A stretch of DNA of 64,000 nt from the NCBI GenBank assembly GCA_012813795.1, contig GCA_012813795.1_4087.1; one strand, 5' to 3'. Below the pieces are notes generated by a model. That model saw only the letters and a program-made list of their open reading frames with translations, did no database searches and was not told the DNA's origin. This document shows, in pieces, positions 1 through 388 of the stretch; the first letter of the stretch is position 1, and the number at the start of each line of letters is the position of its first letter. The position numbers and the translations under genes are program-made. The stretch comes from a phage.

Positions 1-388
1 ACATTTCATCAGTAAAACTACCCATATTATATGAGTGTTTTGGTGAATTCAATGCATCAATAACGTTCATTGCTTCATCATAATCCATATGGAATACTTC
101 ATTACATACACATTCTACGTATTCAGCACTTGTTGTAGGATCATCCAACAGGATGAAATCAAACATAGGAACTGAAAGTAAGTTTTTTTCTGGATGTTCT
201 TTAAGAAATTCAGATAGACCATTTTCAAGAACCACATTATCTACTTCAGTGTGTTCAGATTGTAGTTTAGTAATGTATGGTGTAATATCATTACCACCAG
301 CGAGGTAATAAACAGAGTCTTTATAAGTTGCTTTCACTACGCTGAACTGTTGCAGTGAAAACACTTGTTGTTCGATAGTATGTTTCAT
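1..388 (-). CDS. ClpS-like adaptor domain protein with N-terminal extension; 5' part only, gene runs past the window start
   Basis: Minus-strand ATG at 388 with upstream AAGGA; translation ...[56 protein letters not shown] matches the ClpS core pattern (YKVILLNDDYTPMEFV...GVFTAEVA). Not in the ORF track because it has no stop in the window. Confidence 0.45.

Follow-up and report, generated by a model that had tools for sequence, protein, structure and literature searches.

A gene for a protein resembling the protease adaptor ClpS, lying beside a gene for translation initiation factor IF-3 at the left end of a phage contig, raises the question of which Clp protease such an adaptor would serve. 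The contig (GCA_012813795.1_4087.1 of assembly GCA_012813795.1) was analysed over a stretch of 64,000 nucleotides (nt), hereafter the window; a preliminary description, made from its letters alone, had read the gene as encoding an N-degron adaptor whose binding to host ClpA should be assayed. Judging from profile comparisons, the gene appears to encode a divergent adaptor of the ClpS family that is specific to phages, and we consider it rather probable that its product serves a ClpAP protease encoded by the phage, by docking on the N-domain of a phage ClpA-like protein, rather than host ClpA.

The window is ~97% identical to, and collinear with, Escherichia phage A4 over 63,897 of its 64,000 nt, with 93.7% identity across the first 3.2 kilobases (kb); A4 belongs to the genus Asteriusvirus, among the 121Q/PBECO4/RaK2-like jumbo phages. 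The ClpS-like open reading frame (ORF) starts with an ATG at 388-386 on the minus strand, its product beginning MKHTIEQQ, and the 5' part (1..388, minus; codons 1-129 of 181) continues past the left end of the window. The remaining 52 codons are given by a public contig (L003) that is 100% identical to window positions 1-1000 (1,000 nt compared), through which the full gene was obtained, as the preliminary description had advised: 181 codons at L003:1520-2065, with a product of 181 amino acids (aa). The ClpS-type peptide quoted in that description is correct up to its last residue, but the final Ala is absent from the window, where the next codon starts with T and in the full-length gene encodes Cys. 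Since the fragment in the window matches PHROG 15940 (E-value 7.6e-58), the public contig is identical, and the annotated A4 coding sequence (CDS) A4_74 ('protease adapter protein') shares 98% identity with the product, the ORF is a genuine gene and not a chance ORF.

The relationship to ClpS is visible only with profiles and structure. Against Pfam ClpS (PF02617; gathering score 23 bits), the window fragment, the full-length L003 protein and the A4 protein score 20.7, 20.4 and 20.3 bits as single sequences, and the 121Q orthologue passes with 24.7 bits. With the ClpS-like protein, none of the NCBIfam ClpS equivalog models comes near its cut-off, a phmmer search of the single protein against the PDB reaches an E-value of ~0.3 at best, with matches exclusively to ClpS, and E. 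coli ClpS has no tblastn match at E <= 1 in the whole A4 genome. A profile of 18 relatives, when compared with the PDB, retrieves ClpS chains only (E-value 1.6e-5), and 17 of these relatives match Pfam ClpS at E <= 0.01 (best E-value 3.5e-8). The hidden Markov model search that had been proposed is positive at family level, but the single protein stays below the Pfam gathering score. An hhalign comparison with 13 bona fide ClpS sequences, 13/13 of them confirmed as Pfam ClpS, returned a probability of 98.9% (E-value 2.5e-17), and its alignment of residues 72-155 of the phage protein to residues 24-106 of E. coli ClpS covers the entire core; HMMER alignments to PDB ClpS chains agree with this pairing.

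Structure prediction leads to the same family. The AlphaFold2 model of the A4 protein, which is 98% identical to that of the window, has a predicted local distance difference test (pLDDT) score of 87.6 and displays the b1-a1-a2-b2-a3-b3 order of ClpS at residues 75-154, so that the complete core fold is present in the prediction. When this model was searched against the PDB with Foldseek, the top 35 matches were all ClpS, the best with a root-mean-square deviation of 1.1-2.3 A and target-normalised template modelling scores of 0.83-0.91. Neither of the two outcomes that the preliminary description had named as contrary to it, a missing remainder of the ClpS fold or the lack of a significant ClpS family match, was encountered: the core is complete and the homology is significant at family level. 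The designation 'N-degron adaptor' has to be worded more cautiously than the homology, because the protein lacks the disordered N-terminal extension and matches the canonical pocket only in part.

In the predicted three-part architecture, residues 1-70 form a folded orphan N-domain, approximately residues 72-155 a complete ClpS core and residues 162-176 an extra conserved C-terminal helix. The family-specific N-domain, with three beta-strands followed by helices, is encoded at 179..388 (minus); its residues 6-64 are predicted as a beta-beta-beta-alpha-alpha domain with a pLDDT of ~87 in both models and a predicted template modelling score of 0.74 for the domain alone. A recognisable fold relative of this domain was sought and not found, and a search of 1.84 billion representative proteins recovered it only fused to this ClpS core. 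The first two thirds of the core (residues 72-129: b1, a1, a2, b2 and the start of a3), delimited with hhalign and HMMER, are encoded at 2..175 (minus); a start at residue 72-75 agrees with the extension of about 75 aa that had been noted ahead of the core. The C-terminal helix follows b3 and carries the conserved motif L..LIR.DYP.D. Across 25 phage-type sequences, the N-domain motif is kept at Y27 (22/25), D34 (22/25), I35 (23/25) and T36 (21/25), and that of the C-terminal helix at L172 (23/25), I173 (21/25) and P178 (21/25), L169 also being part of it. The phage protein thereby differs from E. coli ClpS, with which it shares ~21-24% identity, in its length (181 residues versus ~100), in the folded 70-aa N-domain that replaces the disordered extension, and in the additional C-terminal helix.

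The residues expected to read and to deliver N-degron substrates were compared in two sets, a wide alignment of 25 phage-type family representatives with 8 canonical ClpS sequences, and the close clade of the window's protein (18 sequences, 49-98% identity). By alignment, the E. coli ClpS pocket residues N34, D35, D36, T38, M40 (the gatekeeper) and H66 correspond to phage D82, D83, P84, T86, A88 and N114, while the docking residues E79 and E82 correspond to E128 and I131, and K84 to F133; the pocket positions and E128 all lie within the portion of the core encoded in the window. The phage protein shares with bacterial ClpS (E. coli; PDB 1MBX, 2W9R, 3O2B) the docking Glu (E79), D35, T38 and one junction Pro, and differs from the E. 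coli protein by M40 to Ala, H66 to Asn, E82 to Ile and K84 to Phe. The junction retains one Pro (P74), where that of canonical ClpS is Pro-rich. In the close clade, five of the six pocket positions are invariant, compared with 48 of 181 positions overall. The residues V91, I110, L113 and L148, aligned with E. coli V43, M62, V65 and L99 and presumably lining the pocket, are retained as hydrophobic.

Two of the substitutions can be placed beside characterised proteins. The phage D82-D83-P84 matches the W33-D34-D35-P36 motif of Mycobacterium tuberculosis ClpS, and in M. smegmatis ClpS the first Asp forms a salt bridge with the substrate N-terminus, the protein binding Leu, Phe, Tyr and Trp (bioRxiv 10.1101/2024.06.12.598358). 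By analogy the D-D-P motif would be no defect, since the same motif is found in functional mycobacterial ClpS. The resemblance is local: mycobacterial ClpS (M. smegmatis PDB 9AYN/9AYO; M. tuberculosis), which works with ClpC1, is only ~15% identical to the phage protein and keeps the gatekeeper Met, the His and a normal N-terminal extension. At the gatekeeper itself, Met at ClpS position 40 blocks beta-branched side chains (bioRxiv 10.1101/2024.06.12.598358). An Ala at this position should, again by analogy, relax specificity. The engineered ClpS mutants M40A and M53A accept Ile and Val. These mutants (PDB 3G1B, 3G3P) have Ala at the gatekeeper position, as has the phage protein, but they are laboratory mutants of canonical ClpS, whereas the phage Ala is natural, invariant in the clade and combined with the exchange of His for Asn. 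Both A88 and N114 depart from the canonical N-degron pocket.

On the docking side, E128 is the sole column at least 90% conserved in the 25 phage-type and 8 canonical sequences besides the start Met, and it is present in 25/25 sequences of the phage type. At the equivalent position canonical ClpS has a Glu which, with one other acidic residue, stabilises binding of the ClpA N-domain (bioRxiv 10.1101/2024.06.12.598358).

A candidate for the docking partner is encoded by the phages themselves. With E. coli ClpA as tblastn query, a ClpA-like gene was found in the same phages as the ClpS-like gene. The 121Q protein gp581 (762 aa) shares 43% identity with E. coli ClpA across residues 22-732, contains both AAA+ modules and a Clp_N repeat (24.6 bits; cut-off 20.7), and has IGM in place of the IGL of E. 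coli ClpA, a loop which we take to be the ClpP-docking motif. Its orthologue in phage A4, A4_579, sits among tail and baseplate genes. A4 also encodes a true ClpP, A4_455 (CLP_protease E-value 7.7e-42; 36% identity to E. coli ClpP), whose segments GYAASMG, MCHQV and DRDLWL align with GQAASMG, MIHQP and ERDRFL of the E. coli enzyme; we take the latter to hold the Ser/His/Asp triad, and the aligned triad residues are conserved. The A4_455 record carries the mislabel 'TP-dependent Clp protease'. A weak ClpP/crotonase-like protein, A4_467, was not counted as a second ClpP, CLP_protease giving only 15 bits. In the complete A4 genome (ON286972.1), tblastn detected exactly one ClpA-like gene (178050-180335), one ClpP (A4_455, 88155-88850; A4_467 lies at 95219-95824) and one ClpS-like gene, so that a Clp_N-bearing partner of ClpA/ClpC type and a ClpP occur together in a phage ~97% identical to the window. 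A tblastn search of the whole A4 genome with E. coli Aat, for an enzyme generating N-degrons, gave no match.

The three genes also travel together. Among RaK2-like records in the phage collection, 72 contain the ClpS-like gene, 73 the ClpA N-domain and ~70 ClpP, with nearly the same genus distributions: 34, 33 and 33 records, respectively, for Escherichia phages, 10, 11 and 10 for Klebsiella phages, 8, 8 and 8 for both Salmonella and Erwinia phages, and 4, 4 and 4 for Yersinia phages. Because A4 encodes both a ClpA-like protein and ClpP, and because the genus distributions of the three genes are near-identical, phage ClpAP appears the likelier partner than host ClpA; with its own ClpA-like protein and ClpP in so close a relative, the proposed assay of binding to host ClpA probably aims at the wrong partner.

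From the gene and its homology, the predicted fold, the residue pattern and the co-occurrence of the Clp genes we infer a docking partner, an adaptor activity and a type of cargo. Docking of the ClpS core would occur via the invariant E128, the counterpart of E79 in E. coli ClpS, and the surface contacted would be the N-domain of an unfoldase of ClpA type. The preferred candidate is the ClpA-like protein of the phage itself, which retains the IGM loop and would act together with the phage ClpP. In this way the adaptor might redirect or tune the substrates degraded by phage-encoded ClpAP during infection, its cargo being read by the partly retained N-degron pocket, with DDP..T like that of mycobacterial ClpS, by the family-specific N-domain together with the C-terminal helix, or by both.

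Several observations weigh against an N-degron adaptor of phage ClpAP. The single protein falls short of the Pfam gathering score (20.4-20.7 versus 23 bits). Canonical delivery depends on entry of a disordered N-terminal extension into the ClpA pore (PMC9663308); here a folded N-domain stands in its place and only ~5 residues are free. The pocket His is replaced by Asn (N114), and in the wide family 13-19 of 25 sequences retain a given pocket position, fewer than for the N-domain and C-terminal helix motifs (20-23/25). As the pocket is the less conserved of these elements, N-degron binding may not be the common function of the family. On the docking side, the second acidic residue is lost, the equivalent of E82 being Ile and variable in the family, and at the position of K84, which we take to be a ClpA contact, the phage protein has Phe. 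The ClpA-like and ClpP genes were seen in close relatives and not in the window, and the three Clp genes, separated by 80-175 kb in A4, give no operon evidence. Finally, literature searches on phage ClpS found no functional study of the family, only two genomic mentions.

Host E. coli has ClpAP too. The ClpS-like protein might target host ClpA instead, either hijacking host ClpAP or competitively blocking host ClpS and so protecting phage proteins with destabilising N-termini. The conserved docking Glu would suit this purpose, and a sigma-70-like promoter candidate upstream suggests early expression. A protein devoid of a disordered N-terminal extension would also fit a non-productive binder, given that blocking the entry of the extension inhibits delivery (PMC9663308), and delivery to host ClpAP is the default reading in the literature, a comparative study of jumbo phages describing several with a ClpS of their own that 'likely' brings targets to the ClpAP of the host (PMC7824862). 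Against this stand the Ile and Phe aligned with E. coli E82 and K84, and the relatives: every RaK2-like genus with the adaptor also has a ClpA-like gene. Among these phages ClpP is well conserved (~64-92% identity), and both the adaptor (36-82%) and the ClpA N-domain (26-86%) diverge fast. Their divergence in step is more simply read as that of a cognate phage pair, and a role on host ClpA seems to us unlikely.

A second alternative concedes the docking of the core on an unfoldase and dispenses with N-degron reading altogether, the N-domain and C-terminal helix binding one host or phage protein in the manner of the cargo-specific tethers SspB or MecA. It draws on the same conservation pattern, in which the motifs of both additional elements are better kept across the wide family than the pocket (13-19/25), on the free replacement of pocket residues in distant members, and on the exclusive fusion of the N-domain to this core among 1.8 billion proteins. 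The close clade points the other way, its pocket positions being invariant well beyond background and the hydrophobic residues that we take to line the pocket being retained, and the N-domain has no known partner nor a fold relative to suggest one. We regard such a tether as decidedly doubtful for the protein of the window. A translation-linked role unrelated to Clp, in which a module resembling the bL12 C-terminal domain would act with IF-3 and KTSC proteins on the ribosome, was raised by a fold resemblance and by the position of the gene between those of IF-3 and a KTSC-domain protein in every RaK2-like lineage examined, and was rejected as highly improbable on scores and on the absence of a bL12 sequence signal, all sequence-profile matches being to ClpS and none to bL12, while the RNase H-to-topoisomerase II block is collinear in RaK2-like phages and the adjacency may merely reflect core-genome synteny.

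Returning to service of a phage ClpAP, the present analysis adds to earlier annotation the three-part architecture, the loss of the disordered extension, a mycobacterial-type D-D-P loop with gatekeeper Ala and Asn, the invariant docking Glu and the co-occurrence with ClpA-like and ClpP genes; taken together, these features shift the likeliest partner from host ClpA to phage-encoded ClpAP. RaK2-like phages seem to have a complete set of ClpA, ClpP and ClpS genes, and the phage ClpS departs from the canonical design exactly where the E. coli delivery mechanism is defined. We advance only tentatively the wider proposal that RaK2-like jumbo phages carry a self-contained ClpA-ClpP-ClpS machine, constituting a phage-controlled degron pathway of altered specificity with a hand-off unlike the E. 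coli model of extension pulling. Altered specificity could, for example, mean acceptance of beta-branched N-termini (gatekeeper Ala, Asn for His) or a dedicated cargo. If the set were indeed a protease run by the phage, it would offer a tractable system both for viral reprogramming of host protein turnover and for cargo hand-off of the ClpS type without a threadable tail.

The gene itself is already known, being a near-identical copy of an annotated gene, and its novelty is low. A family profile compared with the 1.84 billion representative proteins recovered 36 proteins at E <= 1e-3, of which ~20 have the full three-part architecture (165-197 aa); the remainder are short, ClpS-sized proteins matched over the core only, most of them confirmed as Pfam ClpS. 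A 904-aa protein with tandem repeats of ~60 aa (P0026; 15 matching stretches, E-value 4.4e-24) was discarded as a relative, as it looks like translated repeat DNA. Among GenBank phages, tblastn yielded 72 records, all of jumbo phages and all but two fragmentary records 310-386 kb in size, with hosts in Escherichia, Klebsiella, Salmonella, Erwinia, Yersinia, Pectobacterium, Xanthomonas, Cronobacter and Serratia. The RaK2-like orthologues (121Q gp48, A4_74, GAP32_314, Muenster_395, Munch_345; 36-98% identity) occupy the same position, share the three-part architecture and show no material difference.

Labels on the 72 records vary between 'ATP-dependent protease', 'Clp protease adaptor' and 'ClpS domain-containing protein'. 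The first of these, used by RefSeq and PHROG, is a misnomer, since the protein contains no ATPase or peptidase domain, and its correction concerns many records of the family. The ClpS relationship has been annotated since GAP32, whose RefSeq record (GAP32_314) cites PF02617 and similarity to ClpS; the records of 121Q gp48 ('protease adapter protein ClpS'), Muenster_395 (HHpred 98.3% to E. coli ClpS) and Munch_345 likewise name a ClpS adaptor. The paper on phage Atu_ph07 lists Clp genes and reports ClpA as conserved in RaK2-like phages (PMC6102473).

The gene directly upstream on the same strand is indeed that of IF-3, as had been described. It encodes a homologue of 167 aa (403..906, minus; PHROG 9787, E-value 1.5e-65) with both Pfam domains, IF3_N (E-value 5.9e-17, 62 bits; cut-off 26.9) and IF3_C (E-value 1.5e-13, 51 bits; cut-off 34.8). 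A spacer of 14 nt, read from the sequence (389..402, minus), separates the IF-3 stop from the ClpS-like start and contains AAGGA (400-396) 7 nt upstream of the ATG, an arrangement consistent with both co-transcription and independent initiation. The promoter candidate mentioned above, found by a consensus scan at 955..983 (minus; TTGACA, 17 nt, TACAAT; 11/12 matches) upstream of IF-3, is a possible promoter of an IF-3/ClpS-like transcription unit; further 11/12 sites occur at 1179-1151 and 3017-2989, and the total of sigma-70-like sites in the region is not above shuffled expectation, so that the site is a candidate only.

Two further ORFs lie upstream of IF-3 on the minus strand, one of 64 aa (980-1174; PHROG 15132) and one of 188 aa (1199-1765; PHROG 16501; 'structural protein' in 121Q and A4), neither with a Pfam assignment; all RaK2-like phages examined have both within this conserved block. 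The order IF-3, ClpS-like, KTSC is kept in A4, 121Q, GAP32, Muenster, XaC1 and Munch, and the longer order helicase, structural gene, 64-aa ORF, IF-3, ClpS-like, KTSC and on to topoisomerase II in Asteriusvirus, Alcyoneusvirus, Mimasvirus, Salmonella phage Munch and Xanthomonas phage XaC1. Collinearity extends over this entire block, so that a functional link need not follow from the position beside IF-3. The KTSC-domain gene, downstream of the ClpS-like gene and just past the left end of the window, is split in this lineage (L003:2130-2685; A4_75 and A4_76) into two ORFs that overlap by 8 nt, one of 75 aa carrying the KTSC domain and one of 111 aa, and is a single ORF of ~180 aa in 121Q gp49, GAP32_315, Munch_346, XaC1_404 and Muenster_396; the split could be due to a frameshift mutation or a programmed frameshift. 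In E. coli K-12 (NC_000913.3, 922913-927432), clpS and clpA neighbour serW, infA (IF-1) and aat, so that N-degron genes flank an initiation-factor gene there as well. The proximity of clpS in E. coli and of the ClpS-like gene in the phage to an initiation factor is probably a coincidence.

The preliminary description had also placed the gene, with IF-3 and GroES, in a small set of host-like translation and proteostasis factors carried by the phage. This holds at genome scale, and is extended by A4, which carries IF-3, the KTSC protein, a peptidyl-tRNA hydrolase, tRNAs, two GroES, a DnaJ-like protein and the ClpA, ClpP and ClpS homologues, dispersed over the genome; it does not hold as a locus. 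The GroES (Cpn10) homologue of the window (37095..37391, minus; Pfam Cpn10 E-value 5e-16, 59 bits; A4 counterpart A4_23) is 36.7 kb away, and with the ClpA-like and ClpP genes at 80-175 kb in A4 a cluster of IF-3, ClpS and GroES at the locus level was rejected. A second annotated GroES of A4, A4_86 (274558-274881), lies outside the window. Elsewhere in the window, the large terminase is encoded in two pieces (32583-33287 and 30970-32307, minus), the gap between them being bridged by an ORF of 112 aa (32270-32608) that overlaps both ends; A4 likewise has two 'large terminase subunit' CDSs, 276 nt apart, and the arrangement could reflect an intron, an insertion or a split gene.
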